DNA from: Chthoniobacterales bacterium
Lineage (GTDB): Bacteria; Verrucomicrobiota; Verrucomicrobiia; Chthoniobacterales; UBA10450
DNA: 64,000 nt
Direction: 5' to 3'
Assembly: GCA_038258245.1 (NCBI GenBank)
Contig: JBBSQB010000008.1
Span: forward strand, 31,405 to 95,404
Positions 26,397-63,612 of the stretch are shown piece after piece. A program made the position numbers and the translations under genes. Positions within the stretch are counted from its first letter, which is position 1, and each line of letters opens with the position of its first letter. Below the pieces are notes generated by a model that saw only the letters and a program-made list of their open reading frames with translations, was not told the origin of the DNA and did not search any database.

Positions 26397-28205
26397 TCAG
26401 ACTTTGCGGCCGAATTTTTTCTCGAGTTCGCCTAACGAAATCTGGATCATGGTCGGACGGCCGTGCGGGCAGCAATAGGGCAGCTCGCAAGCAAGCAGAT
26501 CGCGCATCAGTTTTTCGATCTCGAGATGGCGCAGCGGGTCGTTCGCTTTGACGGCGTGACGGCAGACGGTCTTGGCGATCATGTCTTCGCCCAGTCGAAG
26601 TGCGGAGGCGCCCTGGCTGGCGTTCTTGAGTGAATCGATCACTTCGCGCATGAAACGGACGGGATCGGCGGTGGTGAGGAAGGTGGGGAGGCTGTCGATC
26701 TTGAAGGTGGTTGGCCCGAAAGCTTCAATGCCGATCCCCATCTTTTGCAGCGTGGCGACATTGCGCTCGACCCAGGCGGCGTCGCGCGGCGGAAGATCGA
26801 AGGTTTGCGGCAGGAGAAGACGCTGCGACGGGACGCCCTGTTCTTCCATGCGGCGGCGTAATTCTTCGAAGAGAATGCGCTCGTGGGCGGCGTGTTGATC
26901 GACGAGCACGAGGCCGTCGGCGTTTTCCATGAGGACGTAGAGTTTGTTGAGGACGCCAATGATTTTGAATGGGGTCGAGTCGTTAGGCGGAGTGGCGGGT
27001 GCAGACGAAAGAGGTTCGGTAGCCCGACGGGTTTCCTCGGCCCCGAAAGCTTTCGGGGCTCGAAAGGGATGAGGGCTCGCTTCGCTCGGGATGACGGGGA
27101 ACGTTGGCGGCGGGAAAGCGAAGGCTTGGTTTACCGGTTCTGGTTCAGGTGAAGCAATCGCGTGGACGGGCGCGGTGGGCGGCGCGCGAAATTGTTCCTG
27201 CCAATCGCGGCGGCCGCTTTCGAGCGTTTCGCGAATGCTGGCCACAATCGCTTCGCGGACCCCTCTCGGATCGCGGAATCGGACTTCGCGTTTGGCGGGA
27301 TGAACGTTGACGTCGACCGCCGTCGGATCCATTTGCAGGAAGAGAAAGGTGACCGGGAATTGCCCCTTCATCAGCGCGGTGTGATAACCTTCGCGCAAGG
27401 CTGCGGTCAGCACAGCGCCTTCGATGGCGCGGCCGTTGACGAAGACAAGCTGTTGCGCGCGCGTCTGCCGACTGACGCCTGCCTGCCCGATGAGCCCGCT
27501 AATTTCCAGCCGGGCAGATTTTGGCGGCGTGGCAATCTCGAGAAGCCTCTCAACGAGCTCACTCCCGTACAAATCGCGGATGCGTTCGCGCAGGCTCTCG
27601 GTGGCGGGCAATTGAAAGACGACGCGCTCATCGCGCACGAACGCGAACGCGATCTGCGGATGCCCGATGGCCTGGAGATGCAGTTGATGTTCGACGTTGC
27701 GGCTCTCCGTGTTTTCGGAGCGCAGAAATTTCCGGCGGGCCGGCAGAGTGTAGAAGAGCGAGCGCGCTTCGATTTGGGTGCCGGGCGCTTCGCCGCCATC
27801 GCGCACCGTTTCGATGCGGCCTCCGGCCACCAGAATTTCGCTCCCGGCGACGGCTTCGGGTTCCCGAGTCGTTAGGCGAAAACGCGAGACGCTCGCGATG
27901 CTGGGCAGCGCCTCCCCGCGAAAGCCAAGCGTGCGAATGTTCGACAGATCGTCCGACGTGCGAATCTTGCTGGTGGCGTGGCGCTCGAGACAGAGCAGCG
28001 CATCATCGCGATCCATCCCGCAACCGTCGTCGATCACCCGCACGAGCGAGATGCCGCCGCGTCGGATCATCACTTCGATGTGACGCGCGCCCGCATCGAT
28101 GCTGTTTTCGACCAGCTCCTTCACGATGGAAGCCGGGCGCTCGATCACTTCGCCGGCGGCGACCTGGCTGGCGAGAATTTCTGGCAACAAACGGATGCGA
28201 CTCAT
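26397..28205 (-). CDS. mutL: DNA mismatch repair endonuclease MutL
   Basis: Start at ATG 28205 'MSRIRLLPEILASQVAAGEVIERPASIVKELVENSIDAG'. C-terminal 'DQHAAHERILFE' endonuclease motif. Confidence 0.9.
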   Translation of the reverse strand: MSRIRLLPEILASQVAAGEVIERPASIVKELVENSIDAGARHIEVMIRRGGISLVRVIDDGCGMDRDDALLCLERHATSKIRTSDDLSNIRTLGFRGEALPSIASVSRFRLTTREPEAVAGSEILVAGGRIETVRDGGEAPGTQIEARSLFYTLPARRKFLRSENTESRNVEHQLHLQAIGHPQIAFAFVRDERVVFQLPATESLRERIRDLYGSELVERLLEIATPPKSARLEISGLIGQAGVSRQTRAQQLVFVNGRAIEGAVLTAALREGYHTALMKGQFPVTFLFLQMDPTAVDVNVHPAKREVRFRDPRGVREAIVASIRETLESGRRDWQEQFRAPPTAPVHAIASPEPEPVNQAFAFPPPTFPVIPSEASPHPFRAPKAFGAEETRRATEPLSSAPATPPNDSTPFKIIGVLNKLYVLMENADGLVLVDQHAAHERILFEELRRRMEEQGVPSQRLLLPQTFDLPPRDAAWVERNVATLQKMGIGIEAFGPTTFKIDSLPTFLTTADPVRFMREVIDSLKNASQGASALRLGEDMIAKTVCRHAVKANDPLRHLEIEKLMRDLLACELPYCCPHGRPTMIQISLGELEKKFGRKV

Positions 28206-28311
28206 GCGATCCCCGATTTTAGTTTCGCGCGGTCGGATTGCACGCGCAGATTCCCCCGCTCGTCCCGCTCCCATTGACTTGGCGCGCCGTGCCGATAATT
28301 TCCATATCTCG

Positions 28312-28647
28312 ATGATGAACGTCACCCAAAATGCCGCCCAGCACCTCCGCTCTCTTCTGGCGGAACATGCGGACACGCCCGCGCAGGGTTTGCGCGTGCA
28401 AATTGCCAAGGGCGGCTGTTCCGGCCTGCAATATGAGATGTCGCTCGGCGACCGGCAGGAAAAGGACGCGGTCGTGGAGCAGGATGGCGTTTCCTTTTTC
28501 GTCGATCCGCAAAGCGCGGCCTACCTCGATGCGGCCACGCTCGATTTTCAAGATGGGCTGACCGGGGCCGGCTTTCGCATCGTGAATCCAAACGCCGCCC
28601 GCACGTGCGGTTGCGGCACTTCCTTCGAGCCGGCGCCGCGCGCCTAA
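28312..28647 (+). CDS. A-type iron-sulfur cluster carrier (IscA/ErpA/HesB family)
   Basis: 'GGCSGLQYEM' and a C-terminal 'CGCGTSF' cysteine triad. Start at ATG 28312. Confidence 0.85.
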   Translation: MMNVTQNAAQHLRSLLAEHADTPAQGLRVQIAKGGCSGLQYEMSLGDRQEKDAVVEQDGVSFFVDPQSAAYLDAATLDFQDGLTGAGFRIVNPNAARTCGCGTSFEPAPRA

Positions 28648-28669
28648 CGAACCTTCCGCCCGGCGCCGA

Positions 28670-30232
28670 ATGGATCGCGAGCTTTTTCGCTTCGACGAAC
28701 GGTCTTACCGGCCCCGCCGCAAGACGAATTACTTCCTTTGGTCGATCGTCGTTCTGCTCCTTATCGGCTTCGCCTTCGCCGCCTGGCTCGGCAGTTTCTA
28801 CATCTTCGGTCAACCGGAACGGCCGCAGAGTTATCGCATCCTGCAGAAGCTGCATAAAATCGATCCGCCCCGGCGTTTTGGCCTGACCGCGGCGCCGAAA
28901 GGCGAATTCCTCAACGCCGCCGCCACTTGGGATCGCTACTCGATCATGCGTCCCGCTGAGCTGGCCCAGGCGAACGCGGAATTGATGCGGAATTTTTTGC
29001 GCAATTACCAGCAGGTCCGCGGGCTCGTTCCGTATGTGGTCGGTCGATACGATGTCATGGAAGCGCGCGAGCTGGGGCCTAACGACTTGTTTACGTCCGG
29101 CGTCACCGCCCTCACCCGCTCCAACGATCGCGGCGAAGTGCTCATGGAACACGTCTATCCGGGCGACGCCCATGATGTGCCGTTAATGAAAGAGACCCTG
29201 GTCGTCGGCCTCGAGATTAAACTGGAACGCACCCACGATCTCTCCGCCCTCGTGCACGTCGAGCGTCTCGCGGATGGGCGGATTCTTCTTTCGACCGTGC
29301 CGCTGCTCTACGGCAGTTACACGGTCACGCGCGGCCCCGGCACTTTCAGCCTCGAACCTCCCGACGATCTCAACATCGCGGCGGGCTGGCCGATCTTTAA
29401 GGATTCCTATCGCCGCAAAGCGGAAATTCATTACGCCAATTACCGCGCCAAAACCACACCCGCTCTCAACGGAAGTTTTTCCATGACGGGCGTGACCACC
29501 AGCACGCCGCCGCCCGCCGAAAATGAATTGGTGCGCGTCGAGCAAGCCATCGCGCCCAACGCCGCCAACCCGAAGGTCGCGCAGAAGAGCGAGACACCGG
29601 CAGCGGCCCCCTCGCCTGCCTCAACAAAACTCGCGCGCCAACAAAACACGCCGAAAGCGGCGCCGAGCGCTTCGCCTGTCGTGGTGGCCAAAGTGGAATC
29701 AACGCCCGGGTTCTCTCCACCACCCACTGTTATCACTGAGGAGACTCCGGTGCCGGTCAAGCCGGCAGAGCCAATCGCCGCTGCGGCTCCCACTCCCACG
29801 CCGGTTCCGGTGCGCGCCGCCGTGCCTCTCACCGCTGCCGAAGAAAACGCGCTGGCCTCCACCGCCGGCGGCGCGAGCTGGAAGACATTCGAGGCGGGCC
29901 ACATGCCGGCCGGCCGCCTGGTCAGTGCTTCCGATCTCGATGACGTGGCGAAGCACGGCCTCTCGGGCGAACGCTATTATTTGCGCGGCCAATTCGTCGT
30001 GAACTTTGCCGAAACGAACCGTGCCGTCTTGCGCCCGCGTTCCGCGTCCGACGAAGAATCCGATGAAGCAAAGTCGGTGCGCATCATCGTCGAATTTCCG
30101 GCCGGTTCCACGCCGCCTGCGCAAGGCGCGGTCGTGAATCGCGACCAATTACGGCCCTACGAAATTACCGATGTGCGCCGTCAATCCGACGGGCAGATTA
30201 ACGTCTTCGCCCGCGAAATCATGCGGCCCTGA
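28670..30232 (+). CDS. Hypothetical membrane-anchored protein with a Pro/Ala-rich linker
   Basis: 520-aa ORF with one N-terminal TM helix (FLWSIVVLLLIGFAFAAWLGSFYIF). Low-complexity 'PAAAPSPAST...PTPTPVPV' middle region. No family recognised. Confidence 0.5.
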   Translation: MDRELFRFDERSYRPRRKTNYFLWSIVVLLLIGFAFAAWLGSFYIFGQPERPQSYRILQKLHKIDPPRRFGLTAAPKGEFLNAAATWDRYSIMRPAELAQANAELMRNFLRNYQQVRGLVPYVVGRYDVMEARELGPNDLFTSGVTALTRSNDRGEVLMEHVYPGDAHDVPLMKETLVVGLEIKLERTHDLSALVHVERLADGRILLSTVPLLYGSYTVTRGPGTFSLEPPDDLNIAAGWPIFKDSYRRKAEIHYANYRAKTTPALNGSFSMTGVTTSTPPPAENELVRVEQAIAPNAANPKVAQKSETPAAAPSPASTKLARQQNTPKAAPSASPVVVAKVESTPGFSPPPTVITEETPVPVKPAEPIAAAAPTPTPVPVRAAVPLTAAEENALASTAGGASWKTFEAGHMPAGRLVSASDLDDVAKHGLSGERYYLRGQFVVNFAETNRAVLRPRSASDEESDEAKSVRIIVEFPAGSTPPAQGAVVNRDQLRPYEITDVRRQSDGQINVFAREIMRP

Positions 30233-30518: not shown

Positions 30519-31244
30519 CTAGTACGGTCGTCCCGCTTCGATCACCACTTTGTTATCGATGATGCGAAACGACGTCACACCGTATTCGTCGCGATATTCG
30601 TTGATGTAGCGATCGGCGTAAGTCCGCACCCGGCCAATCCCGGCGAGGTAGTTAAATATCCGTTCCGGGAATCGGGTCCCGCCCGGCGCCTTCGTCTGAA
30701 TCTCAATTCCCGAGGGGCTGCCGTCCGGCGCCGAGCGCACTTCGAAATCGGCATTCAGGTAACGGCCTTCAAACCCGAGCTTGTCGAGCGGAATGCTCAC
30801 CGCCACATGCCCGACGTTGTTCTCGATCGAAACAAAGGCGTGCCCGCGCGCCTTGCGATTCGCGGCGATGAGCTGGTTAATGTCGCCGGCCGAAAACTGA
30901 ATGGTTTGATTATTGTTCGCGGGCGGAGGAGTCGGTGTCGGCGTCTCGTTAGGCGGGAGCGGCGTGTTGGAAGGAAGAGGTGGAGGCGGTTCCTCCGTCC
31001 GCGTCGTTTCTTCAAAATTCTGCCAGCGATCTTTCACTTCATGTTGCTGCTCGGGCGACGTCTCAATGGCTGGGAGCGGCCGCGGCTCCGTCGAAGTAAA
31101 AGTTTTGCGCGTCCCGATGTAGAGCCCGTAAACGCCGGCCAAACCGAGAAAAAAGACGAGCACAAAGAGGATGAGGCAGCCGCGGCCGAGGCAGCAACTG
31201 GTGCCTTTGCGCGGTTCCGGACGAGGTTCGATTACGGTGGCCAT
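30519..31244 (-). CDS. Hypothetical membrane-anchored protein with a Pro-rich linker
   Basis: 241-aa ORF. N-terminal TM helix (CLILFVLVFFLGLAGVYGLYI) and a 'PPPPLPSNTPLPPNETPTPTPPP' linker. No family recognised. Confidence 0.5.
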   Translation of the reverse strand: MATVIEPRPEPRKGTSCCLGRGCLILFVLVFFLGLAGVYGLYIGTRKTFTSTEPRPLPAIETSPEQQHEVKDRWQNFEETTRTEEPPPPLPSNTPLPPNETPTPTPPPANNNQTIQFSAGDINQLIAANRKARGHAFVSIENNVGHVAVSIPLDKLGFEGRYLNADFEVRSAPDGSPSGIEIQTKAPGGTRFPERIFNYLAGIGRVRTYADRYINEYRDEYGVTSFRIIDNKVVIEAGRPY

Positions 31245-31255: not shown

Positions 31256-31765
31256 TTATTGCGCCGCCATCTTATCCTGCGCGGCAATCAGTTTGTCGTA
31301 GAGACTCTGCAATCCTTCCGAAAGCAGGCGCGTTCCGCCTAGGATCGGCATGAAATTGGTGTCGCCGCTCCAGCGCGGGACGATGTGCAGATGCAAATGA
31401 TCGGGCACGCCCGCACCGGCGCATTCACCGAGATTCAAACCGATATTGAATCCCTGCGCCTTCACCGTGGCGCGGAGCAGCGCTTGCGCATGCGTGGCCA
31501 GCTTCCAAAGCTCAAGCATTTCATTTTCGCCTAACGACTCCAGATCGCCCGTCTTGCGATACGGCACGGCCAGCAAATGGCCGACCGCATATGGATAACG
31601 ATTCATGAGCAGAAACGCATTCTTGCGCCGCGTCACGACGAGATGCGCGGCATCGTCGTTCGTCTGCGCGGCCTCGGTCAGGAAATTGGGATTCGGCTTC
31701 TGCTCGAAGTATTCGACGCGCCACGGGCACCACAGGGTTTCGATTTCGGCTTTGGGAAATTCCAT
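31256..31765 (-). CDS. HIT family nucleotide hydrolase/phosphorylase
   Basis: Histidine triad 'VPDHLHLHIVPRW'. Confidence 0.8.
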   Translation of the reverse strand: MEFPKAEIETLWCPWRVEYFEQKPNPNFLTEAAQTNDDAAHLVVTRRKNAFLLMNRYPYAVGHLLAVPYRKTGDLESLGENEMLELWKLATHAQALLRATVKAQGFNIGLNLGECAGAGVPDHLHLHIVPRWSGDTNFMPILGGTRLLSEGLQSLYDKLIAAQDKMAAQ

Positions 31766-31814: not shown

Positions 31815-33290
31815 TTAGGAGCGCGTCAGAAAAACATAATGCGGCGTGCGATCGTCCCCGGGCCGCCAGGATTGCAAACGCGATGGAATCGCGCCCGGCA
31901 GATCACGCAAGAGCAGCGGCTCTTCCTCTGCCGGGGCCACCACCGCAGTGATCTCTCCGGCGTTCCATTTCGCAACCACGGCGGCGTGTTCGAGAAAATG
32001 CAACCGATCGAGATAAAGGAGGAGACCTTCCTCGTCGCCGCCCATCACTTCATAGTGCCAGCCGTGCGCCGCCGCCTGCGCGCGGACACTCTCGCCGAAC
32101 TTGACCAACGCTCCGCGACGATCGCGATAGGCCGCGTCCACTTTCACCGCCGTGTAACCAGCGCTGATGAGAATGGCAAACGCCAGGGCGAGGGCCGACC
32201 AGCGCAACGCCGGTTTTCGCCAGCGTTCATTCGTTAGGCATTTTCCCACCATGACGCCAAGGAGAAGCGCGAGCGGCGGGATGACCGGAAAAATGCGATC
32301 GACGCGCTTCGACGGAATGAGCGACAGGATGAGCAGCCCACCGAGACTCCACGAAATCAGCCAGAACGTTTCCGGCGAAAGATTTCTCCAACGTTCGCGC
32401 CAGCGCTTCTCCGCTGTCCCCCTACGCAACACGCCGAGCGCGATCAGGAGAATGCTCCAGGGCGCAAACTTGTGCAGCAGATGCGGCAGATAAAAATAGA
32501 TGGCCTGCGGTTTGTGGACCGTTTCGCCAAAGCGGCCGATGAATTCCTTCATCACCACCTGATTGAAAAAGCCGGAGACAAAAATCATCCCGCCAATGGC
32601 CCAGAACAGGAAAATGCCTAACGAGGCCAGCCACGGCCACCAGCCGCAAAACGCGCGACCCAATCCGCGATCGTGCCGGCGACGCCATTCCACCAGGACG
32701 ATTCCAGGCAAAAGAAACGCGTAAACGATCGGGCCTTTGATCAGCATGGCGGCGCTGAGCAGGAGAAAGCTGATCATCCGATCGGAATCGCGCCACGGCT
32801 CGGCCAGCCGCACTTTTTGCCAGATTTGCCAGCCGAGCAGAAAGACGACGAACGCCAGCGGCATATCGGTCCGCACCAGCGTGGCGATGCGCAACGAAAG
32901 CAGATTCAATCCGAACGCGCTCATCGCGATCAGCGCCGCGACCACGCCCTGCGTCTTCCCGATTGCGCGACCGATCACCCAAAGCAAACCGATCGCCGCC
33001 AGCAGAGACGGCAACCGCCAGGCCAGCGCCCATGATCCCGTCGCACCAAAGATGCCGGCCGAAATCCACCCGACCAAAGGCGGCTTGGTCGCAACCTTCT
33101 CGTTAGGCGTGTGCTGGTAAATCCAGTGACCCGCCTTCACCATTTCGAAGGACGTGTAGGCCTGCTTCGCCTGATCGTAATCGTCGAGCTGCCACGGCAA
33201 ATTCCCAAGCAGCCAGACTGCCGCGATGAGCCCGAGAACGCTCCAAAGCGTTCGCCGGTCCGTCAGAAACTTCTCGGCCAGGAGCGTCAT
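31815..33290 (-). CDS. GT-C fold membrane glycosyltransferase (ArnT/PMT family 39-like)
   Basis: 491-aa polytopic protein with 'DDYDQAKQAY...TKPPLVGWI', typical of ArnT-like enzymes. The start overlaps the kynB stop by 1 nt. Confidence 0.6.
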   Translation of the reverse strand: MTLLAEKFLTDRRTLWSVLGLIAAVWLLGNLPWQLDDYDQAKQAYTSFEMVKAGHWIYQHTPNEKVATKPPLVGWISAGIFGATGSWALAWRLPSLLAAIGLLWVIGRAIGKTQGVVAALIAMSAFGLNLLSLRIATLVRTDMPLAFVVFLLGWQIWQKVRLAEPWRDSDRMISFLLLSAAMLIKGPIVYAFLLPGIVLVEWRRRHDRGLGRAFCGWWPWLASLGIFLFWAIGGMIFVSGFFNQVVMKEFIGRFGETVHKPQAIYFYLPHLLHKFAPWSILLIALGVLRRGTAEKRWRERWRNLSPETFWLISWSLGGLLILSLIPSKRVDRIFPVIPPLALLLGVMVGKCLTNERWRKPALRWSALALAFAILISAGYTAVKVDAAYRDRRGALVKFGESVRAQAAAHGWHYEVMGGDEEGLLLYLDRLHFLEHAAVVAKWNAGEITAVVAPAEEEPLLLRDLPGAIPSRLQSWRPGDDRTPHYVFLTRS

Positions 33291-33922
33291 TAATCTCGCC
33301 AGAGAATGGCGCGCACGGGCGCCGCATCGCCGCCTTCGATTTTCAACGGCAACGCAGCGAGCTGATAGTCGCCCGCCTCGATCGTTTCCAGATTCAGGTT
33401 CTCGAGAATGGCGATGCCCGCCGTCGCGAGCGCGTGATGATTCGGCAAATCTTTCGAATCAATCGCATCGACCGACGGCAGATCGAGGCCGAGCAACTTC
33501 ACGCCCCTCGCCTTCAGCCAGACGGCCACATCGTGCGCGATCACCGGAATTATCTCCGGAAACGGCGCGCCTTCCGGCCAGGCGCCGGTCCGCAAAAGCA
33601 GACGCGGCGGCAGCTCATCGTCCGCCAGAGCCGCTTCCAAATCGGTCACCGCAATTTCCGGCCTAACGAGTCCGGTAACGTCCAACACCCGTGCCGTTCC
33701 CACAAAAAAAGCGAGCGGCATTTGATCGATCGTCGCTCCTTCCGCCTCGAAATGAAACGGTGCGTCGGCGTGCGTTCCATTGTGCGTGCTCATCTCGATC
33801 GCGCCCACGTTCACGCTCGCGCCCGCCGCCATTTTCCAGCTCAGCGCAAAACGAAACGCCGTATCGCCCGGCCACGACACGAGCTCGCGCGACAACGCAC
33901 GCGAGATGTCGAAGATTTGCAT
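33290..33922 (-). CDS. kynB: Kynurenine formamidase (cyclase family)
   Basis: About 210 aa with 'STHNGTHADAPFHF' metal-binding motif and the size typical of KynB. Confidence 0.75.
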   Translation of the reverse strand: MQIFDISRALSRELVSWPGDTAFRFALSWKMAAGASVNVGAIEMSTHNGTHADAPFHFEAEGATIDQMPLAFFVGTARVLDVTGLVRPEIAVTDLEAALADDELPPRLLLRTGAWPEGAPFPEIIPVIAHDVAVWLKARGVKLLGLDLPSVDAIDSKDLPNHHALATAGIAILENLNLETIEAGDYQLAALPLKIEGGDAAPVRAILWRD

Positions 33923-33931
33923 CGCCTCTTT

Positions 33932-34705
33932 CTACACGAACTGCCGCGCGCATTCGAGCACGCGCCGCACGTTCCCGCCCATCGCGTCGATCTCCGCGAC
34001 CAGCCGCGATCCGACCACCGCCGCATCCGCATAACGACAAACGCGCCGCGCCTGCTTCCGCTCGACACTGCCGAAACCGACCGCGACCGGCAGATCGCTC
34101 ACCCTGCGAATGCGCGCGACCAATTGCTCCGATTCATCCGCCAGCTCGCGCGCTGTTCCGGTCACGCCCGTCCGCGCCACCGCGTAGATGAATCCGCCGG
34201 CCAGGCGCGCGATTTCCCGCAAACGCCGATCGCTCGTCGTCGGCGCGACCAGAAAAATCAGGTCGATGTCGAAGCGCCGCAGTTGCTCGCGCAAAGCCGC
34301 CGCGCCTTCGGTCGAGAGATCGACCACCAATACTCCCGCCACTCCGGCAGTGGCGGCGCGCCGCGCGAATTTCGCGAGGCCGAATTGCAGAATCGGATTG
34401 TAATAAGAGAAGAGAACAACCGGCGCAAAGTCGTTAGGCCGCGACTCGTCCAGCATTTGCAAAATCTTTTCGAGCGACGTGCCGCGGGCGAGCGCGCGTT
34501 GCGCGGCCCGCTCGATGGTCGGGCCATCGGCGGTCGGATCGCTGAAGGGAACGCCCACCTCGATGGCGACCGGCCGCAACTTGCTCAGCCCGCTAAGCAG
34601 CTTGTGCGTCGTCGTCAGATCGGGATCGCCCGCGACCAGAAACGGAATGAAGCCATTGCCTTTCCGCCGGCGCAGAGCGGCGAAGCTTTCAGTCAGCGCG
34701 CTCAT
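33932..34705 (-). CDS. trpA: Tryptophan synthase alpha chain
   Basis: '[12 protein letters not shown]...[17 protein letters not shown]' TrpA signature. Confidence 0.9.
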
Positions 34706-35913
34706 CGGCGGCGTTTTAATTCCGCTTCCACGCTGGCCAGATCTTTGTCACCGCGTCCGGAAAGGTTCACGATAATGCTCTGGCGTTTCGTTAATTTGCG
34801 CGCGATGCGCAACGCGTGGGCGACCGCGTGCGCCGATTCGAGCGCGGGAATAATTCCCTCCAGATGCGCCAGTTTTTGCAACGCGCGCAACGCTTCCGCG
34901 TCGTTCACCGAAACGTATTCGACCCGCTTGTGCTCCCGCAAAAACGCGTGTTCCGGTCCGATCGCCGGATAATCGAGCCCGGCTGAAATGGAATGCGTGC
35001 TCGCGATCTGACCGGCCCGATCCTGCAATACGTAGCTCAGCGTGCCGTGGAGTACGCCCGGTTTGCCGCCGCCGCCCGTCGCGAAACGCGCGGCATGCTC
35101 GCCCAATTTTTTGCCTTTGCCGCCCGCTTCCACGCCGAGGAGCCGCACTTTTTCGTCGCCTAAAAAGCGATGGAAAAAACCAATCGCATTCGAGCCGCCA
35201 CCGATGCAGGCGATCAGCAAATCCGGCAGTTTCTTCTCGCGGGCCTGGAATTGCCGCCGCGTCTCCTCGCCGATCACTTTCTGAAATTCGCGCACCATCA
35301 GCGGATAGGGATGCGGCCCGAGCGCGCTGCCTAACAAGTAATAAGTCTCGCGCGCGTTCGCCACCCAATCGCGCAACGCTTCGTTGATCGCGTCCTTCAA
35401 CGTTTGCGAGCCGCTCTCGACGATGCGGACTTCGGCGCCGAGCAGACGCATGCGCAACACGTTCGGCTCCTGCCGCCGCACATCTTCCGCGCCCATGTAG
35501 ACGATGCATTCCAGGCCGAGCAACGCGCAGACCGTCGCCGTGGCCACGCCATGCTGGCCCGCGCCCGTCTCCGCAATGATGCGGCGCTTGCCCATCCGCT
35601 GCGCGAGCAATCCCTGGCCGAGCGCGTTGTTGATTTTGTGCGCGCCAGTGTGGAGCAAATCCTCGCGCTTGAGAAAAATCCGCGCGCCGCCCGCGTGCTC
35701 CGTCAAACGTTCCGCAAAAGTGAGCGGAGTCGGTCGGCCGGAATAGTTGCGGCGCAGATCGGACAAGGCCGCCTGGAATTTCCGGTCGCGCTGCGCGGTT
35801 CTAAAAGCGGTGGTCAACTCTTCGAGCGGCGCCATCAACGTCTCCGCGACAAAGCGGCCGCCGTATGCGCCCCAGTATCCCTTCTTGTCCGGCTCAGATC
35901 GCAACTTCTTCAT
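34702..35913 (-). CDS. trpB: Tryptophan synthase beta chain
   Basis: Start at ATG 35913 ([26 protein letters not shown]). 'HTGAHKINN' PLP-lysine motif. ATGA overlaps on both sides. Confidence 0.9.
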
Positions 35914-43329: not shown

Positions 43330-43437
43330 GCGTTCAGAAGCTACTGCAATTTTTATGGCAGAGGAACCAGCCGCAGTCAGCAACGCAATTTCAGTTGAGT
43401 TCCACGCAACACTGCCCATTTTTTCCTGGGCGCAACC

Positions 43438-53896: not shown

Positions 53897-54037
53897 ACGA
53901 CTGCGGACTCACCACAGAGATCACGGAGGACACAGAGTTTTCCTTCCATCCAGAATCCTTTGCGAAATCGCACTTGCCTTCTTCCGCTGGGAGCGAGAAA
54001 CGCGTTGCCGTCATCCTTCGAACTGCTCGTGTGTTCG

Positions 54038-54466: not shown

Positions 54467-54934
54467 CTGTGCTGCGAGCGCGCGCGAGAACGCGATCGCC
54501 GTTCGCGAAAAAAAAATCCCGCGAACGTGACGGGTTTCGGTCGGATTTAGCGCGTTTCTCTAATGAAAACCAAATCCCATGACAACGCTCCTCTTATTCC
54601 TGTTCGTTGTGAAAGGCGCGCTGGTTCTCGCCTTTCTCGCTCTCTGTGCACTTGCTCTGCGGTGGAAACGGAAATCCAGGAGGCCGCGTACACACGCGAA
54701 ATTAGGGTCTAACGAACGGCAGCGCGGCGAGCAGGGTCTCGACCGTCGCCGGGTGCGCGCCGAGACCATTCGGAAGCGCTACACGAAGCCGGTGCCGCAT
54801 TTCTCGATGAAGCGGGAATGGGCGCGATCGCCCCACGTGCCGACCGCTGAGATCGTCCCTATTCGCCGCCCAGAATGCCGGCGAGGGTGCGGCCGTCGGA
54901 GTAATTAATATCGGCAATCTTCCAGGCCTGCATT

Positions 54935-55052
54935 ATTCACCACAGAGGACACAGAGATCACAGAGATTTTTAAGGTTCGGATTCCGCCGATTACTGCGGG
55001 AGCGCCCCGAAGCCATTCGGCTGGTTTCGGCGCATGGCCCCAGAACTTTTCC
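54935..55052 (+). repeat. Composite intergenic repeat, copy 3 (more diverged)
   Basis: attcaccacagaggacacagagatcacagag...ctggtttcggcgcatggccccagaacttttcc. Same module order as copies 1 and 2. Confidence 0.65.
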
Positions 55053-55096
55053 GCCTTCCACTCGTCACCTGTCACTCGTCACTCGTCACTCTTTTG

Positions 55097-55216
55097 ATTC
55101 ACCACAGAGATCACAGAGGACACAGAGGTTTTTTATTCTTCCAATTCCGCGTGTTCTCCGGGGGGCGCACGCGCCTCGCGTGCTGGTTTCGGCGCCTCGC
55201 CGAAACGAACTTTTCC
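55097..55216 (+). repeat. Composite intergenic repeat, copy 2
   Basis: The first 22 nt are identical to copy 1, and the hairpin module is nearly identical. Confidence 0.8.
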
Positions 55217-55376
55217 GGCTTCCGCTCGGCACTCAAAACTGGTCACTGATCCCTTCTTTAGACTTAACCGCAGAGATGGCGAGAAAGGTAGCGCGAGCTT
55301 CCAGCTTGCCGCCCGATCCGAATCGCAAGCTGGAAGCTTGCTCTACCCTTTCGGAACGGAACCGCTCGCGAACAGA

Positions 55377-56393
55377 TCAGTCGGTGCGTTCGGGCGGCGC
55401 GCTGGGTTGGTCGGGCATGACGCGAATGGAGGGGAGGCCGACGATCTCGTAGGTGCCGGAAGCGATGCCAATTTTGGCGGCGTCGAGTTGATCGAGAATT
55501 TCGCGGTTCATCCGGTCTTTGACGTCGCGCACGCCGCGTTCGTCGGTGACGAAGCGGAGGGTGAGTTCCACCCAGTTGTCGGTGATGCGGAGGTAAACTT
55601 TTGGTTCGAACTCGGCGTCCTTCACGAAGTAACGTTCGCGCATCCGGCGCAGGGCTTCGTGGCTAACCTGCGTAACCTGGATGCTGTGCCGCCGCGCGAC
55701 GTCGAGCAGGATCTCTTCGACTTTGGCGCGGTTGTCGCGGTAGGCGACGGGGATCATGATTTCTTCCCAGAGATAGGGGAAGTCGCGGGTGTAGTTAAAG
55801 ACGGGTTCTTCGAAGATCTGGTTGTTTGAGACGGTAACAACTCGGCCGGTGTATTGGCGGCTGCGCACCCAGACCTCGGGGTCGGCACTTTCGACGGCGG
55901 GCGGTTGTCCCATTTCCATGATGGTGGTCTGGAGAAATCCGAGCGCGATGACGTCGCCGCGCACACCGCCCATGACGATGCGATCGCCGACGCTGAAGGT
56001 GTTGCCGCGCAGAATGACCATGTAGCCGGCGAACGCGCTAACGACTTTTTGCAAAGCGAAGGCGAGGCCGGCGGTGACGAGGCCAAGCGCGGTGGTGAGG
56101 CGCGTGGGATCGTCGAACCAAATGGAGAGGATGGTGAGGAGAAGAAGCAGCGCGGTGGCGAGCGTAATGCCTTGGCGCGTCCAAAAGAGAATCCATTCCT
56201 TGCGGCGCGGGATGATGAGTCGGGCGAGCCCGCGCAGTCCCCAGCGCAGGATGAGGAACACAGCGATGGCCGAGAGGGTGAGGAGAAGTTTCTGGCCGTT
56301 CTCGGAATTGACGCCGACGAATTTGATCCCGAAGACCTGGAGCGAGCGGCCCAAGGCTGTCGTGTGGGTGGCGGCGGCGAGAAGAGATTGCAT
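55377..56393 (-). CDS. Mechanosensitive ion channel family protein (MscS-like)
   Basis: 3 TM helices followed by 'FSVGDRIVMGGVRGDVIALGFLQTTIME', the MscS beta-domain. Confidence 0.8.
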   Translation of the reverse strand: MQSLLAAATHTTALGRSLQVFGIKFVGVNSENGQKLLLTLSAIAVFLILRWGLRGLARLIIPRRKEWILFWTRQGITLATALLLLLTILSIWFDDPTRLTTALGLVTAGLAFALQKVVSAFAGYMVILRGNTFSVGDRIVMGGVRGDVIALGFLQTTIMEMGQPPAVESADPEVWVRSRQYTGRVVTVSNNQIFEEPVFNYTRDFPYLWEEIMIPVAYRDNRAKVEEILLDVARRHSIQVTQVSHEALRRMRERYFVKDAEFEPKVYLRITDNWVELTLRFVTDERGVRDVKDRMNREILDQLDAAKIGIASGTYEIVGLPSIRVMPDQPSAPPERTD

Positions 56394-56561
56394 TATTTTT
56401 TCCGAGGCGGACGAAACGGATCAATCGTCGTCTGTAATCGAATCTCGCGTGGCGAGAGGCTGGATACCTTTGGCACGGCAAATCCGGGATCCATGGTGGC
56501 CAGCGTTCGTCAGCAGACCTAGCCAGGTTCCAACCAAGGAATGCGTCCAACCCTGCTTTCC

Positions 56562-56882
56562 TTACATCATTTTCGGATGCCAGAGGAGGGCGAAGATGAG
56601 AAAGAAGGCGACAAAGCCGAGGGCGATGAGGAGTTGGAGCAGAAGCGAGGCGGCGAGGAGCCGGTAAAGCGTGCGGGTGCGCCAAATCCAGAAGGCGATG
56701 ACGCCGACAACGGCCAGCGGCTCGAAGATGGCGAGCGCAAGATTGACGATGTTCGGATCGTCGAGCTGGTAATGGTTGGTTAACCAACCGCCGGTGATGA
56801 GATACCAATAGACGAACGCGGCCGCGGCGGCGTTACCCATGGAGAAGACGATTTCTTTAGATCGGGTTGCCATGAAAACCAC
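56562..56882 (-). CDS. Small hypothetical membrane protein
   Basis: 106-aa ORF with 3 hydrophobic segments. Start uncertain. No family recognised. Confidence 0.4.
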   Translation of the reverse strand: MVFMATRSKEIVFSMGNAAAAAFVYWYLITGGWLTNHYQLDDPNIVNLALAIFEPLAVVGVIAFWIWRTRTLYRLLAASLLLQLLIALGFVAFFLIFALLWHPKMM

Positions 56883-57077
56883 GAGCGCTCGCGGAGGAAG
56901 ACGTGAAGCGGCAGAATGTCATGCAGAGTGACGATAGCGAGCACTTTTGTCGCTGGCCGGAATCGGAAAGACGCCACGGGTTGGTCGGCGATTTGAGAAG
57001 CCAGGTCTGCGAAGCGCGAATGGAATCGGAGGGACGACAAACGCGGGTCTCCAGCAAGCGAAGGTCGCGTTCCTTCC

Positions 57078-57474
57078 ATGACAACAGAACTGCGGTTCCT
57101 GGCGGCGAGCGTGATTCTTGGCCTTGTCCATCTCGTGCTGGCTTCGCACCTGATCAGTTTTCAATATGGCTATCGCTGGACAGCCAGCAGCCGCGAACAG
57201 GAAGTGCCGCCGTTGCGCGGCCTCGCCGATTGCGTCGATCAGGCAACGACCAACTTCCTCGAAACGTTTCCTTTCTTCGCAGCTCTCGTCCTTGCCGCGC
57301 ATCTCATCGATCGCAACGGCGCCCTCACCTTGGTGCGGAGCGCATCTTTATTTCTGGGGATGGGTCGGCTACCTGGCGGCGGCTGCGGCGGGCTTTGGTT
57401 TGATCCGTTCGATGATCCTTTGGAACGCGGCGCTGAGCGGCATCGTTCTCTTCCTCATCGCGCTGTTCCGTTAG
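57078..57474 (+). pseudogene. MAPEG family protein, interrupted by a 1-nt frameshift near 57330
   Basis: Frame 1 gives 'MTTELRFLAASVILG...NFLETFPFFAALVLAAHLIDRNGALT'. The next frame continues 'GAHLYFWGWVGYL...IRSMILWNAALSGIVLFLIALFR*'. Together they give about 132 aa, a normal MAPEG length. Confidence 0.65.
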
Positions 57475-57648
57475 GCGATTTGCCAAATCTTTCCGGTGCG
57501 CTCCGGGCGGCTCGGGGAGCGCCTGTCTCCAGGGAGGCTGGTTTCGGTCTCCTGACCGAAACGAACTTCCGCCATGGGATCGGACCCACTCAAACCGCGG
57601 CCACTTCTTCGCGCTTTCGTTCCCAGAAGGCCACTCAGAAAGCTTCCC

Positions 57649-59082
57649 TCAATCCGGCGGGTCGAGCCGCGCGCCGGACGGCGTCCGCAACAACGGATAA
57701 CCCTCCGCCCGCGCGACGTAGGTGGCGATGGTGACGTCGCCGACCACGTTCACAGTGGTGCGGCACATGTCGAGAATGCGATCGACGCCGAGGACAATGG
57801 CGATGAGCGCCGGATTCACATTCACGGTGGCGAGCACGGCGATGATGAACGGGATCGATCCCGACGGCACGCCGGCCGTGCCGATGCTCCCCAGAATGGT
57901 GAGATAGACGACGGCGAGCTGCTGGCCTAACGAGAGATGGACGCCAGCCAATTGCGCAAGGAAAAGAACAGTCACGCCCTCGTAGAGCGCAGAGCCATTC
58001 TGGTTCGCCGTCGCGCCGACGGTGAGAACGAAGCTGTTGATCTCGCGCGGCACCCCGAGATTTTCCTCGGTCACACGCAAAGCAGTCGGCAGGGTGGCGT
58101 TCGAGGAGGAAGTCGAAAACGCAGTCAACATGATCGTTTTGATGCGCCGGAAAAAGTCGAGCGGGGAAAGACGCGACAGGAAGTAAATCAAGATCGAGTA
58201 AACGCCGAACATGTGAAGGCTGAGCCCGATGAGGACGGTCGCGACAAACCAGCCGAGCGCGGTGAGAAGATCGAGGCCGAAGCGCGCGGTGTTATTAAAG
58301 AGCAGACAGGCGACCGCATACGGCGCGAATTTCATCACCATGTCGATGATCTTGACGGTGATCTCGTAGAGGGCTTGCAGCCCGCGAATAAGCGGCGCGG
58401 AGACCGGCGCGGGTACGAGCGTGGTCGCGATCCCGAGGACGAGCGCGAAGAACATGAGATGCAGCATGTTCGGCGGATCGCTCGCGAAACTGCCGAGCGG
58501 ATTCGACGGCACGACCGTTTTCACGATTTGCAAAACGGCGGAATCCTTGTTGGCAGCGGCGGTTTTTTCCGCCTGCTCCACCTGTTTGCTCGCGTCCAGG
58601 GCGTAACGCTGCTCGAGCTTGGCGCGACTCGCGGCATCGACGCGTTCGCCAGGGCGAATGACGTTGGCCAGCGTTAAACCAATCGCCACCGAAATGGCGG
58701 AGATGACTAACGAGTAAAGCAACGAACGCACGCCGACCCGCCCGATTTTACGAATATCCCCCAGCCCGGCGATGCCGACGACGAGCGACGACAGCACCAG
58801 CGGCACCACAATCATGAGGAGCGAGCGCAGAAAAAGCTGGCCGACTGGCTCGGTGATATTCGCGACCACCCACGCGATGCGCGGGTCGTCGCCGCCGAGG
58901 AGCGCGTTGGCAAGCAGGCCCGCTCCGACGCCTGCGCCCAACCCGATCAGGATGCGCGTGTGAAGCGCGAGCCCCTTCGGGCGATCGGGCGTGTTGTCGT
59001 CGAGATCAGTGGTGGTCTCGCGTTCGAAGTGATCGGGACTTTCGCGCTCGCTCGGTTCGTCAGGCATCTTGCCGCGGAGCAT
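57649..59082 (-). CDS. Dicarboxylate/amino acid:cation symporter (DAACS family)
   Basis: 'FLRSLLMIVVPLVLSSLVVGI', 'SSSNATLP', 'GATANQNGSALYEG' and 'DRILDMCRTTVNVVGD' family blocks. Confidence 0.85.
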   Translation of the reverse strand: MLRGKMPDEPSERESPDHFERETTTDLDDNTPDRPKGLALHTRILIGLGAGVGAGLLANALLGGDDPRIAWVVANITEPVGQLFLRSLLMIVVPLVLSSLVVGIAGLGDIRKIGRVGVRSLLYSLVISAISVAIGLTLANVIRPGERVDAASRAKLEQRYALDASKQVEQAEKTAAANKDSAVLQIVKTVVPSNPLGSFASDPPNMLHLMFFALVLGIATTLVPAPVSAPLIRGLQALYEITVKIIDMVMKFAPYAVACLLFNNTARFGLDLLTALGWFVATVLIGLSLHMFGVYSILIYFLSRLSPLDFFRRIKTIMLTAFSTSSSNATLPTALRVTEENLGVPREINSFVLTVGATANQNGSALYEGVTVLFLAQLAGVHLSLGQQLAVVYLTILGSIGTAGVPSGSIPFIIAVLATVNVNPALIAIVLGVDRILDMCRTTVNVVGDVTIATYVARAEGYPLLRTPSGARLDPPD

Positions 59083-60294: not shown

Positions 60295-61485
60295 CTATGA
60301 GAAGAACCGCTCAGGCGTGAGCATGGGTTGCGGGAGACAGATGCGCTCGACGAAATGTTCCCAGCTTTCCTGTCCGCTCAGAATTTTGATCTCCACGCGC
60401 AGGAAATAAATCGGCACCTGCACGGTGGTGAGACGAGGGAAACGGACGGCATCTTTTTCGGTGGTCACGATCATCTCAAGATCGCGGCGAATGCAGCGGG
60501 TGACGAAGCTCTGAATCTCGGCTTCGGTGAAGCGATGGTGATCGGTGTAGCTCTTGGCCAGCTCAATGCGCGCCCCAAGATTGCGCAAGCCTTCCTCGAA
60601 GCTCTCCGGCGCGGCGATCGCGCAAATCGAGCCGATGTATTTATCGCGCAAGCGCTCCAGCGGCAGCCGTTCGCCGGTGATGAGGTCTTGCAGGTGCAGC
60701 GGATGATGCGCGCATTCGATGATCTCGGCGGTGCGATTATAACGGCGGATGCGCACAATTAATGCGTCGTTAGGCTGGCTGGTGCTCTTGGTGATGAAGA
60801 TGTAACTGGCGCGCCGTAGATTGCGGGGCGGCTCGCGCAAGGTTCCGCGCGGCAGGAGAAATTCGTTCCCGAACGGCGCCTGGCGATCAATCAAAACAAT
60901 ATCGAGCCGATGCTTGAGATGAAGATACTGGAGGCCATCATCGAGCAAGAGCGTGTCGGCCTGCATTTCTTTGATGGCGTGCAGCCCGCTCTTCACGCGA
61001 TCCTTGTCCACGAGGACGATGACGTCCTTCAAATTGTTCGCGAGCATGTAGGGCTCGTCTCCCGCGGTCAGCGAATCGAGCAAGAGCGCTTTCCCATCGG
61101 AAACAATGCGAGGTGGATTAATGGCCCGGCCGCGCAGGCGATCGAGCCATTTTCGTTTCGTGGGCTGCGGCACACTTTTGTAGCCGCGGCTCAGGATCGC
61201 CACTTTGCGCCCGCCCAATTGCAAAGCACGCGCGATCTTTTCGACGATCGGCGTCTTGCCGGTGCCGCCGACGGTGAGATTGCCAATGCTGATGACGAGG
61301 CACCCGAGTGTGCGCTCGCGAAAAATTCGCTTCCGATAAAAATAGAGACGCGCCTGGACGATGCGTTCGTAGACGAAGGAGAGCGCGTAGAGCAATCCGC
61401 GCAACGTGGCCGCGCGCACCCCATGCCGCCGGCCGAGGATGACGTCGATGGCGAACTGTTCGAGATTTTCGGCCGAGCGTCCCAT
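60295..61485 (-). CDS. lpxK: Tetraacyldisaccharide 4'-kinase
   Basis: '[19 protein letters not shown]' P-loop, typical of LpxK. Confidence 0.85.
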
Positions 61486-61488
61486 CCG

Positions 61489-62322
61489 TTAAAGGAGACG
61501 CGCGCCGCGATTGTCGGCGGTGGTGATGAGGGTGCGCGCTTTCGAGCCGGCGGCCTGGAGCATGGCGGCGGCGACGCGATGGGGCGAGCGTGTCGTTAGG
61601 CAAATAATCGTGGAACCGGAGCCGCTCAGGAATCCGCCCAGCGCACCGGCTTTCTCGCCGGCCGTCAGCGCCTCGTCGAAGAATGGAATGAGCTTCTTGC
61701 GAAACGGTTGATGCAAATGATCGACGAATGTCCCGCGCAATTTCTCGTAATTCTCCGAGGCGACCGCGGCGGTGATCGCGCAAGCGTTGCCGCAGGATTC
61801 GACCGCGGCGAGATGGCGCAGACGCTCGGGCAGAAGACGCCGCGCCGTGGCCGTAGCGATTTCGAAATCGGGGACGAGCAGAACGAAATGAAGCCGGGAG
61901 GAAACGGAAAAGCGCTGCGCCTGCGTCCCGCGCGCGACATTGAATCCGCCGAAATTTGCCGGCGCGGCGTTATCGGGATGACCTTCGAGTCGCGCGGCGA
62001 GTTCGAAGAGCCCTTGACGGCGCAGCGGTTTGCCGGCGAGCGCGTTCAACCCGTGAAGCACTCCGGTGCGCACGCTCGCGCTGCTGCCCAATCCCCGCGC
62101 CACCGGAATGACGGAAGAGATGGAGCAGGAAAACGGGAACGGCGGAATCTCGGCAAATTCGAAGAAGAGGCGCGCCGCCGCGCTGACCATGGGCGGCACG
62201 CGCAGGCCAGTGGTGCGCGAAACCGTGATGTCGTTGTAGAGGCGGAGGGCGACGCCGAGGCAATCGTAGCCGGGTCCGAGGTTCGAAGTGCTCGCAGGAA
62301 CGCGGACGATGACTTGAGGCAT
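61489..62322 (-). CDS. thrB: Homoserine kinase
   Basis: 'VPASTSNLGPGYDCLG', 'GLGSSAS' and 'EGHPDNAAPANFGG' GHMP/ThrB motifs. Confidence 0.8.
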   Translation of the reverse strand: MPQVIVRVPASTSNLGPGYDCLGVALRLYNDITVSRTTGLRVPPMVSAAARLFFEFAEIPPFPFSCSISSVIPVARGLGSSASVRTGVLHGLNALAGKPLRRQGLFELAARLEGHPDNAAPANFGGFNVARGTQAQRFSVSSRLHFVLLVPDFEIATATARRLLPERLRHLAAVESCGNACAITAAVASENYEKLRGTFVDHLHQPFRKKLIPFFDEALTAGEKAGALGGFLSGSGSTIICLTTRSPHRVAAAMLQAAGSKARTLITTADNRGARLL

Positions 62323-62398
62323 GCGATGAAGTTTGTGACTCGTTAGGCAAACGGGTCGTCCGGCATTCTATCGCAGCGCTCGGCGGCGGCAACCTTTT

Positions 62399-62641
62399 GA
62401 AAGCGGAGAGCGGAAAGCGGAAACCGGAAAGCTCCTGTCGGTCATTCCGAGCGAAGCGGAGCGAAGTCGAGGAATCCCGGGGCGAAACGACAAGGTGCCG
62501 ATCACAGCGGAAAACGAGGCGAAGAGATGCTTCCTGGTAACGCGGCGGGATCCCTCACCCCGAAAGCATTCGGGGCTCGGGATGGCAGCGAGTGGGTCCG
62601 CCTTCTTTCTTTCCGGTCTCCGCTTTCCGCTCTCCGCTTTC
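62399..62641. repeat. 243-nt MITE-like element with 33-nt terminal inverted repeats
   Basis: 62399-62431 (gaaagcggagagcggaaagcggaaaccggaaag) matches the reverse complement of 62609-62641 at 32/33 positions. The interior is also self-complementary. Confidence 0.75.
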
Positions 62642-62694
62642 GAACAGTCTTTCCGCTTTGGCGTTTTCGGACTTCTGCCTAATTTGAGGCGCGC

Positions 62695-63612
62695 GTGGAG
62701 GACAAAACTGTTTGGATCGAGCCGGAGCTGTTTCGTCATTTTGAGGCGGAAGGGACCGATGCGCATCGCCTTTGCACCTACTTCGAAGGCTGGGTGGAAC
62801 GCTATGGCGCCGATGTGATCATCTCTTATAAGAGCGAGGTCGCGCGCGAGCGCCTAACGACCGAATTTTGCCTCTGGGCGCTCAATTGCCAATTCAAATT
62901 TAACCGCATCTTCGAGCGGTTCCTTCCCAAAAAAAATGCAGAGCGCGTCGCACCCCGGCTCGCGCTCGGCGACGCCGGGACGAATTTGCAAAGCGTCGCC
63001 ACGGAGCGCATGACGCGTTACGGCATCGACTTCGCGGGCGGTTATTCGGCGGGCCTCTTCATCGATCAACGCGAGAACCGGCAGTTCGTGCGTAAACTCG
63101 CGCCGAAAAAACTGCTCAATTGTTTTGCCTACACCTGCTCGTTCTCAGTGGTGGCGGCCAGCGCCGGCGCACAAACCGTCAGCATCGATCTCTCGAAAAA
63201 ATCGCTCGCCCGCGGCCGTGAAAACTTTGCGCTGAACAGCCTGACGACCAACGACCACCGTTTTCTGGCCGACGACGTGCTCGACGTTCTCCCGCGACTG
63301 GCCCGGCGCGGCGAGAAGTTCGATTGCATTATTCTTGATCCACCGACCTTTTCGCGCTCCTGGCGGGGCAAAGCCTTCCAGGTCGAGCGCGATTTCGGGG
63401 GACTGCTTCAGGCTGCGCTCGAACTGATCGATCGCGATGGCCATATCCTGCTCTCGACCAATTGCACCAGTCTCAACCAGCATGCGCTCGAAGTGATGGG
63501 GCGATTTTGCCTGAAGGCGACGCGACGCGCGGGCGCGTTTCAGCACGCGCCGTCGCTTCCCGATGTGCCGGCCCCGGTGGCGGCGAGCACGGTGTGGCTC
63601 ACCTTGCGTTGA
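62695..63612 (+). CDS. Class I SAM-dependent rRNA methyltransferase (RlmI/RlmK-like, no PUA domain)
   Basis: GTG start. 'LNCFAYTCSFSVVAA.AGA..VSIDLSKKSL' and 'FDCIILDPPTFS' motifs. Confidence 0.65.
   Translation: MEDKTVWIEPELFRHFEAEGTDAHRLCTYFEGWVERYGADVIISYKSEVARERLTTEFCLWALNCQFKFNRIFERFLPKKNAERVAPRLALGDAGTNLQSVATERMTRYGIDFAGGYSAGLFIDQRENRQFVRKLAPKKLLNCFAYTCSFSVVAASAGAQTVSIDLSKKSLARGRENFALNSLTTNDHRFLADDVLDVLPRLARRGEKFDCIILDPPTFSRSWRGKAFQVERDFGGLLQAALELIDRDGHILLSTNCTSLNQHALEVMGRFCLKATRRAGAFQHAPSLPDVPAPVAASTVWLTLR

Follow-up and report, generated by a model that had tools for sequence, protein, structure and literature searches.

The 9-nucleotide word GCCTAACGA occurs 28 times in a 64,000-nucleotide stretch from an uncultured soil bacterium of the Chthoniobacterales (Verrucomicrobiota; GenBank assembly GCA_038258245.1, contig JBBSQB010000008.1, positions 31,405 to 95,404, here called the window), and in this and related genomes it is maintained at the level of DNA rather than protein. 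We propose, tentatively, that GCCTAACGA serves one clade of Chthoniobacterales as its own "self" word throughout the genome, most likely working in the manner of the DNA uptake sequence (DUS) of Neisseriaceae and the uptake signal sequence (USS) of Pasteurellaceae. A literature search found no prior description of the word and nothing on uptake sequences or competence in Chthoniobacterales.

Evidence that the abundance of GCCTAACGA is exceptional comes from several null models. Our recount gave the 28 exact copies, 15 on the plus strand and 13 on the minus strand, and all of the start coordinates reported in the original prediction but one (32615, which should read 32616). Dinucleotide shuffles of the window yield a mean of 0.33 copies and never more than 2, and an order-3 Markov model expects 0.35. 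When synonymous codons are shuffled within genes (1,000 runs), the mean is 3.5 copies and the highest count 7; 3 of the mean 3.5 are nongenic copies left unshuffled, for a codon-aware expectation of about 0.5. These nulls rule out codon usage or composition as the source. GCCTAACGA is the most overrepresented word at each k from 6 to 10, and the 9-mer is the natural unit, as its subwords are hardly more common (30 occurrences for the 8-mers, 38 for CTAACGA). Copies with at most one mismatch number 47, compared to 12.5 expected; since 28 of these are exact, the one-mismatch class (n = 19, including all 11 listed previously) is only mildly enriched. The 25 nucleotides on each side of the window copies carry nearly no information beyond a weak preference for C at -1 and an avoidance of T at +1, which is never seen. 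Across 355 copies pooled from the window and related loci, the flanks show only a slight ttyt-C ... v-t bias, no greater than 0.26 bits. The lack of flank conservation, proposed from the window and borne out in the pooled set, points to isolated 9-mers rather than pieces of a longer repeat. An abundance no greater than a codon-aware null, strand polarity, and a longer parent repeat had been named as grounds for abandoning the idea of an uptake-like motif; all three were examined, and none applied.

Genes were called with a codon-usage model and then checked with Pfam. By this measure, 25 of the 28 copies lie inside open reading frames (ORFs) of unrelated housekeeping proteins, one overlaps a stop codon, and two are intergenic. 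Some genes carry several, with three each in MutL and a PMT_2 glycosyltransferase and two each in TrpC and a PLD-type synthase. Four open frames are used, read as P-N-D/E (10 copies), S-L-G (7), L-T (6), and V-R (2), a tally that agrees with the one made earlier. The accompanying count of 27 copies in coding sequences, two of them as stop codons, needs amending. One real TAG stop is supplied, at 44130, and the copies at 28642 and 62340 are intergenic, the former, taken previously for a stop codon, sitting between the divergent genes mutL and 28670-30232. The copies are as follows.

1236-1244, plus strand: beta-helix protein gene 661-2475, frame S-P-N-E; sole copy in the first 26.4 kb
26430-26438, plus strand: antisense in mutL (26397-28409, minus strand), S-L-G, residue 658
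26980-26988, minus strand: variable mutL linker, P-N-D, residue 474
27869-27877, minus strand: mutL, invariant peptide FRLTTR (CGC-CTA-ACG, with the rare CTA); common to 24 orthologous loci
28642-28650, plus strand: intergenic, between divergent mutL and gene 28670-30232
29077-29085, plus strand: gene 28670-30232 (no Pfam match), P-N-D, residue 136; common to 6 orthologues
30946-30954, minus strand: gene 30519-31244, P-N-E
31529-31537, plus strand: antisense in HIT-family gene 31256-31765 (minus strand), S-L-G (TCG-TTA-GGC, with the rare TTA)
32231-32239, minus strand: PMT_2-like glycosyltransferase gene 31815-33290, L-T
32616-32624, plus strand: antisense in the same PMT_2-like gene 31815-33290, S-L-G
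33100-33108, minus strand: gene 31815-33290, P-N-E, residue 61; common to 9 orthologues
33661-33669, plus strand: antisense in cyclase gene 33290-33922, V-R
34431-34439, minus strand: trpA (33932-34705), P-N-D
36065-36073, minus strand: trpF (35910-36575), L-T
36672-36680, minus strand: trpC (36568-37464), L-T
37174-37182, plus strand: antisense in trpC, S-L-G
42907-42915, plus strand: antisense in Rieske ring-hydroxylating oxygenase gene 42199-43545, S-L-G
44130-44138, minus strand: overlaps and supplies the TAG stop codon of methyltransferase gene 43438-44136 (plus strand)
46233-46241, plus strand: nitroreductase gene 45703-46290, P-N-D
47050-47058, plus strand: cytochrome b561 gene 46403-47089, P-N-E
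48961-48969, plus strand: antisense in gene 48103-49401 (no Pfam match), S-L-G
50007-50015, minus strand: PLD/cardiolipin-synthase-like gene 49589-51010, P-N-E
50836-50844, plus strand: antisense in the same PLD/cardiolipin-synthase-like gene 49589-51010, V-R
57925-57933, plus strand: antisense in sodium:dicarboxylate symporter gene 57649-59082, S-L-G
60767-60775, minus strand: lpxK (60295-61485), P-N-D
61593-61601, minus strand: GHMP-kinase gene 61489-62322, L-T
62340-62348, minus strand: intergenic, 18 nucleotides upstream of the GHMP-kinase start codon
62852-62860, plus strand: S-adenosylmethionine methyltransferase gene 62695-63612, L-T

No structured RNA with an Rfam match was found anywhere in the window.

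The word extends well beyond this one genome. The window's MutL has its best relatives, at 64-78% identity, in 80 metagenome-assembled genomes labeled Chthoniobacterales, Spartobacteria, Candidatus Udaeobacter, or Verrucomicrobiota. Within roughly 22 kb around mutL, GCCTAACGA is the top overrepresented 9-mer in dozens of related species, reaching 13 copies per 10 kb, and 32 motif-rich mutL loci totaling 550 kb hold 285 copies where 3.9 are expected, a 73-fold enrichment. On a MutL tree, the window's clade (GC content, 0.56-0.63) carries GCCTAACGA at 1-13 copies per 10 kb, and a Udaeobacter-like sister clade (GC content, 0.53-0.57) carries a second word, AAGATCGACA(T/A), at 2-19 per 10 kb. This second word is unrelated in sequence to GCCTAACGA and nearly absent from the window itself. 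In the Udaeobacter-like clade it attains 38 copies in 22 kb, read in genes mostly as K-I-D, and its copies are dispersed in both orientations with no polarity and with unconserved flanks; among the loci that bear it are L002, L030, L036, L038 (70-20816, for example), L044, L054, L060, and L073. Both words occur together in one subclade (L038, L044, and L060), and neither occurs in another. One subclade lengthens the first word to GCCTAACGAGTnGT. In the subclade of L046, L027, and L040, the consensus runs on past the 9-mer as GCCTAACGA-G-T-n-G-T (frequencies of 0.67 for G, 0.75 for T, 0.61 for G, and 0.65 for T), possibly a dialect of GCCTAACGA.

A scan of metagenomes for two copies of GCCTAACGA 470-500 nucleotides apart recovered 120 loci. 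Some of the contigs are unrelated to the window or the mutL region and contain additional scattered copies in either orientation, some 4 more per 10 kb, indicating that the word is not confined to one neighborhood. A scan of viral contigs returned six pair hits, only one of them with extra copies. That contig, L204 (IMG/VR UViG_3300010362_000034, 4980-10799), with four copies in 11.5 kb at a GC content of 0.56, is the only viral contig beyond a chance pair and could derive from a phage or prophage whose host bears the motif.

Comparison of orthologues shows that it is the DNA spelling of GCCTAACGA, and not the encoded peptide, that is preserved, as the original prediction had held from the window alone. 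When motif-rich loci are aligned in pairs, the motif is completely preserved in 87% of cases at ~84% identity, in 51% at ~75% identity, and in 39% at ~70% identity, compared to 27%, 10%, and 7%, respectively, for all 9-mers. Motif conservation is about five times that of other 9-mers. Mapping of orthologous residues places the motif at MutL residue 178 in 24 loci and at residue 77 of the HIT protein in 27 of 56 orthologues, with the S-L-G site in the HIT gene spelled TCG-TTA-GGC in those 27. Rare codons are frozen at invariant peptides. FRLTTR of MutL is encoded with CGC-CTA-ACG in 25 of 81 sequences, the window and 24 loci, and the third positions of the neighboring Phe, Thr, and Arg vary freely, synonymous sites being saturated. 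Of the 18 CTA codons in the native region of the window, 6 belong to motif copies, as do 7 of the 30 TTA codons there. At MutL residues 656-662, motif-bearing genomes (14 orthologues share the motif at residue 658) encode S-L-G and others encode S-L-A, S-H-A, or S-N-A, an Ala-to-Gly change indicating that the word also shapes protein. Many other motif positions are unique. The variable MutL linker has about 13 of them, and new copies continue to arise in this permissive sequence.

The one-mismatch variants provide a view of specificity. Four are enriched, G1 to C (32 versus 1.9 expected), C2 to A (16 versus 1.8), G8 to A (32 versus 2.2), and A9 to G (10 versus 3.3). Tolerance is limited to positions 1, 2, 8, and 9, with variants of the CTAAC core at or below expectation. 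The approximate specificity can be written [G/c/a][C/a/t]CTAAC[G/a][A/g], and T is weakly favored in the 5' flank. Judged from these counts, a strict core with tolerant outer positions has the profile of a protein recognition site.

Distribution along the DNA is also informative. In the native part of the window, 27 copies fall in 37.6 kb, about 0.7 per kb. The first 26.4 kb, at a GC content of 0.50-0.57, has a single copy where 19 are expected (P = 1e-7). Here, at 1-23990, a lower-GC surface-polysaccharide cluster encoding an ABC-2 transporter, the beta-helix protein, GT2 and GT4 glycosyltransferases, methyltransferases, epimerases, and PMT_2 is followed by EpsI (DUF3485), exosortase EpsH, and WecG. 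Codon usage in the cluster scores poorly against the native gene model. In 2-kb segments of motif-rich loci, the density of GCCTAACGA rises with the deviation of local GC content (rho = 0.40; with the window left out, 0.32), and segments well below the typical GC content hold 0-0.4 copies versus about 1.06-1.09. GCCTAACGA is depleted in low-GC accessory DNA. The two long stretches of the window that are free of the motif are these.

1245-26429, no strand: lower-GC polysaccharide-synthesis cluster, then EpsI, exosortase EpsH, and WecG
50845-57924, no strand: longest motif-free gap in the native part (7.1 kb), with a 51-nucleotide-repeat gene, four CACAGAG-type intergenic repeats, and an MscS-like gene

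Spacing had been described as more even than random, which holds in part. Over 26.4-62.9 kb it is no more even than random (coefficient of variation [CV], 1.12; P = 0.87). The subregion from 26.4 to 37.2 kb, chosen post hoc, is evenly spaced (P = 0.018), and close pairs are avoided, with a minimum distance of 385 bp between window copies (P = 0.00035). When 16 motif-rich related loci are pooled, the CV of the gaps is 0.68, compared to 0.87 for random placement, and gaps shorter than 200 bp number 14 where 25 are expected.

We favor an uptake or self-recognition signal because DNA uptake enhancing sequences (DUES) are a known class that matches this anatomy. DUES are 9-10 nucleotides long, are present in hundreds to thousands of copies at permissive places within genes, form lineage-specific dialects, and concentrate in the core genome, with none in genes of recent acquisition; they have so far been described only in Neisseriaceae and Pasteurellaceae. 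The earlier comparison to DUS and USS stands with respect to density, both orientations without polarity, intragenic copies in all open frames, isolated 9-mers, DNA-level conservation, accessory depletion, and lineage-wide occurrence with a different word in the sister clade. Inverted-repeat terminator pairs, a typical feature of Neisseria DUS, are absent. From the behavior of the sequence alone, we infer a bias in uptake, a receptor, and competence for GCCTAACGA. Under such a scheme, a DNA receptor of the competence machinery would prefer fragments bearing GCCTAACGA, and conspecific DNA, once taken up, would recombine with the homologous segment and take its place. Any point mutation giving rise to the word, in most cases at a synonymous site or within a permissive stretch of protein, would then spread, and existing copies would be shielded from decay, amounting to molecular drive with or without added selection.

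The resemblance is closest to the Pasteurellaceae USS, of which Haemophilus influenzae has the 9-mer core AAGTGCGGT. Shared features are an asymmetric 9-mer core with weak flank preferences, a density of about 1 per kb, both orientations, a mostly intragenic location in permissive frames or segments, spacing more even than random, depletion from accessory DNA, and different types in related clades. The two differ in that their sequences are unrelated, their bearers are Verrucomicrobiota and Gammaproteobacteria, uptake bias, receptor, and competence are putative for the present word, and the sister-clade word is unrelated here rather than a few-base variant, with both able to coexist. The Neisseriaceae DUS (GCCGTCTGAA and its dialects, with the receptor ComP) is similar in copy density, strict inner core with tolerant outer positions, enrichment in core DNA with absence from recently acquired DNA, and dialects that track phylogeny. 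It differs in its inverted-repeat pairs and terminator association, which GCCTAACGA does not show, and in having ComP, no comparable receptor being known for the Chthoniobacterales lineage.

Several observations weigh against an uptake role. About half of known DUES lie in terminators, and the window shows no inverted-repeat pairs or terminator association (minimum gap, 385 bp). The sister-clade word is unrelated and able to coexist, whereas known dialects differ by a few bases, so that an uptake model must assume two receptors, and an unrelated word would fit a modular system with no part in uptake just as well. Any other genome-wide function under selection would likewise lead to depletion from foreign DNA and to conservation at the level of DNA, and the cyanobacterial highly iterated palindrome 1 (HIP1) is a hyperabundant word without a known uptake role. 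No comEC, comEA, dprA, pilQ, or ComP-like pilin was tied to a motif-bearing genome; the contig carrying the window's genes in public assemblies spans just 8.4 kb.

With respect to competence genes, gene calls and Pfam found no ComEC, ComEA, DprA, type IV pilus, or receptor minor pilin in the window. A tblastn search of all collected loci with Escherichia coli YcaI and RuvB gave a single match, on contig L175 of a different organism. This match is a ComEC/YcaI-like ORF (L175, 123-1550) with 26% identity to E. coli YcaI over 491 amino acids. An attC-type array (6057-9463) lies some 4.5 kb away on this metagenome contig, which has a GC content of 0.66. The literature lends weak support as context. 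Competence-domain proteins are near-universal in bacteria, and meadow-soil populations of related Verrucomicrobia with evidence of recombination are reported to have ComEC homologues next to RuvB. A ComEC homologue is reportedly important for DNA uptake in Chlamydia, a relative of Verrucomicrobia within the Planctomycetes-Verrucomicrobia-Chlamydiae superphylum.

The alternative that survives best is an iterated word like HIP1, with GCCTAACGA kept by selection for a chromosome-wide function other than uptake, such as a site for an abundant DNA-binding or nucleoid protein, a nonpolar recombination or repair signal, or a self-marker for defense or a nuclease. Enrichment, conservation, foreign-DNA depletion, spacing, and protein-like specificity fit this explanation equally well. 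It would also accommodate the absence of terminator pairing, and the unrelated words in sister clades, found together in one subclade, resemble modular specificity switches. HIP1 itself (GCGATCGC) is likewise a hyperabundant, short, intragenic word whose orthologous positions are conserved beyond neutral expectation. However, HIP1 is a palindromic octamer and GCCTAACGA is asymmetric, and GCGATCGC is not enriched here (248 versus 215 expected over all loci). No system of this kind is known in which a nonpalindromic 9-mer recurs within genes about once per kb on either strand, and no candidate protein was found. We consider a function of this sort possible, if somewhat unlikely.

A sequence-specific bias of mutation or repair, whether by very-short-patch (VSP)-type repair with a methyltransferase or by biased gene conversion at a nick site, could let the word accumulate without any function of its own. 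The word does arise through point substitutions at synonymous sites, slow accumulation would leave recently acquired DNA without it, and the sister-clade word AAGATCGACA contains GATC and TCGA. We nevertheless regard this explanation as improbable. Known VSP enrichments are below ~2-fold, compared to 73-fold here, and to our knowledge a 9-bp asymmetric specificity is without precedent in repair of this type. Moreover, the CpG within the motif decays asymmetrically, with CA variants at 32 versus 2.2 expected and TG variants at 1 versus 2.0, which argues for positional tolerance rather than a deamination-repair signature.

Signals that act with RecBCD or AddAB (Chi) or with FtsK (the FtsK-orienting polar sequences, KOPS) are also short, overrepresented, lineage-specific words inside genes, and Chi has an entirely different sequence from one taxon to another. 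Such signals are strongly polar with respect to replication and enriched only a few-fold; GCCTAACGA is nonpolar and enriched ~70-fold, with the 73-fold value of the mutL loci far above any known Chi. The absence of strand bias noted at the outset extends from the window (15:13) to 23 loci, where the majority-strand fraction is 0.58 compared to 0.62 expected without bias; a strand preference of 65-75% would give 0.67-0.76 and is excluded. Absent polarity excludes a Chi- or KOPS-like role locally, and we judge it highly improbable overall.

The integron attC site calls for separate consideration, as GCCTAACGA contains GCCTAAC/GTTAGGC, the canonical attC inverse-core/core 7-mer, an overlap missed in the original prediction. 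The attC consensus is RYYYAAC/GTTRRRY, with R''(RYYYAAC)-L'' and L'-R'(GTTRRRY) forming the two sides of an imperfect palindrome of 60-150 nucleotides that flanks a cassette. In addition to this exact core, about 54 of the 120 loci from the metagenome scan are same-orientation arrays with conserved flanks, and in the arrays inspected, GCCTAACGA heads an imperfect palindrome of 80-165 nucleotides that ends in GTTAGGC and recurs every 450-700 bp around short ORFs. Copies in the window could accordingly be attC sites, attC remnants, or secondary sites for an integron integrase. The partner box decides against this. A GTTRRRY box lies 45-175 nucleotides downstream of 76 of 82 array copies, but of just 1 of the 28 copies in the window and 16 of the 323 at mutL loci (background, 9%). 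Window copies are single words, without hairpin or cassette, in conserved housekeeping ORFs with no inserted DNA, and the specificity departs from RYYYAAC in that positions 3 and 4 of GCCTAACGA do not tolerate Y substitutions. In the array contigs checked (L145 and L180), no copies lie outside the arrays. The partner-box test rules out attC membership of the window copies, which have only the 7-nucleotide core identity; an integron origin is scarcely credible, and the shared core is most likely coincidental.

Integron-like cassette arrays are present on the soil-metagenome contigs L142 (for example, 100-7400), L112, L085, L145, L148, L084, L180, and L179. They consist of 5-13 same-orientation units of 450-700 bp, with the start of a short ORF 15-25 nucleotides away. 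Several distinct attC families in these arrays have the exact GCCTAACGA in common, forming one end of the attC.

Raw copy number alone could suggest a mobile repeat (of the repetitive extragenic palindrome or miniature inverted-repeat transposable element type) or an artifact of assembly or composition, an idea that can be set aside almost entirely, as a dispersed repeat is refuted by flank information of at most 0.26 bits and by 25 of 28 copies lying inside ORFs, as in-frame parts of conserved genes, and the word is found in dozens of independent assemblies from different studies with a codon-aware expectation of ~0.5 copies.

Other features of the window were noted in passing. A PEP-CTERM protein is encoded at 38857-39609. 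Flanking the longest 9-mer-free stretch is a set of intergenic repeats around TTCACCACAGAGATCACAGAG, with CACAGAG-type heptads, at 51300-51348, 53905-53953, 54933-54981, and 55095-55143, all on the same strand and without an Rfam match. Two of them extend into a shared element of ~130 nucleotides (51349-51431 and 55143-55223). The ORF at 51667-52938 (423 amino acids, no Pfam match) contains at least eight degenerate 51-nucleotide (17-amino-acid) tandem repeats rich in N-T-A-x-G, and its predicted product resembles an adhesin- or surface-repeat-type protein.

Whatever its function, GCCTAACGA marks native versus acquired DNA, gives a taxonomic signature for binning, and constrains the choice of codons and the sequence of proteins strongly and for reasons yet to be explained. 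It is possible, if still short of probable, that Chthoniobacterales possess a third, independently evolved system of self-recognition in DNA uptake, the first outside Proteobacteria, with at least two signals, GCCTAACGA and AAGATCGACA. Relative to DUS and USS, the new elements would be the phylum, the absence of terminator pairs, and two unrelated words that can coexist, with a putative receptor. If such a system exists, two words that define sister clades and coexist in one subclade would point to switchable or duplicated receptors, and the four natural classes (first word, second word, both, and neither) offer a ready phylogenetic-profiling design for finding a receptor. To the Chthoniobacterales belong Udaeobacter-like lineages that rank with the most abundant bacteria of soil. 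An uptake system in this uncultured and globally dominant soil lineage would imply widespread species-selective natural transformation in soil, would make self-selective transformation a recurrent evolutionary solution, and would open a direct way to study how genes flow among soil Verrucomicrobia; donor DNA furnished with the word could then help to transform these hard-to-grow bacteria.

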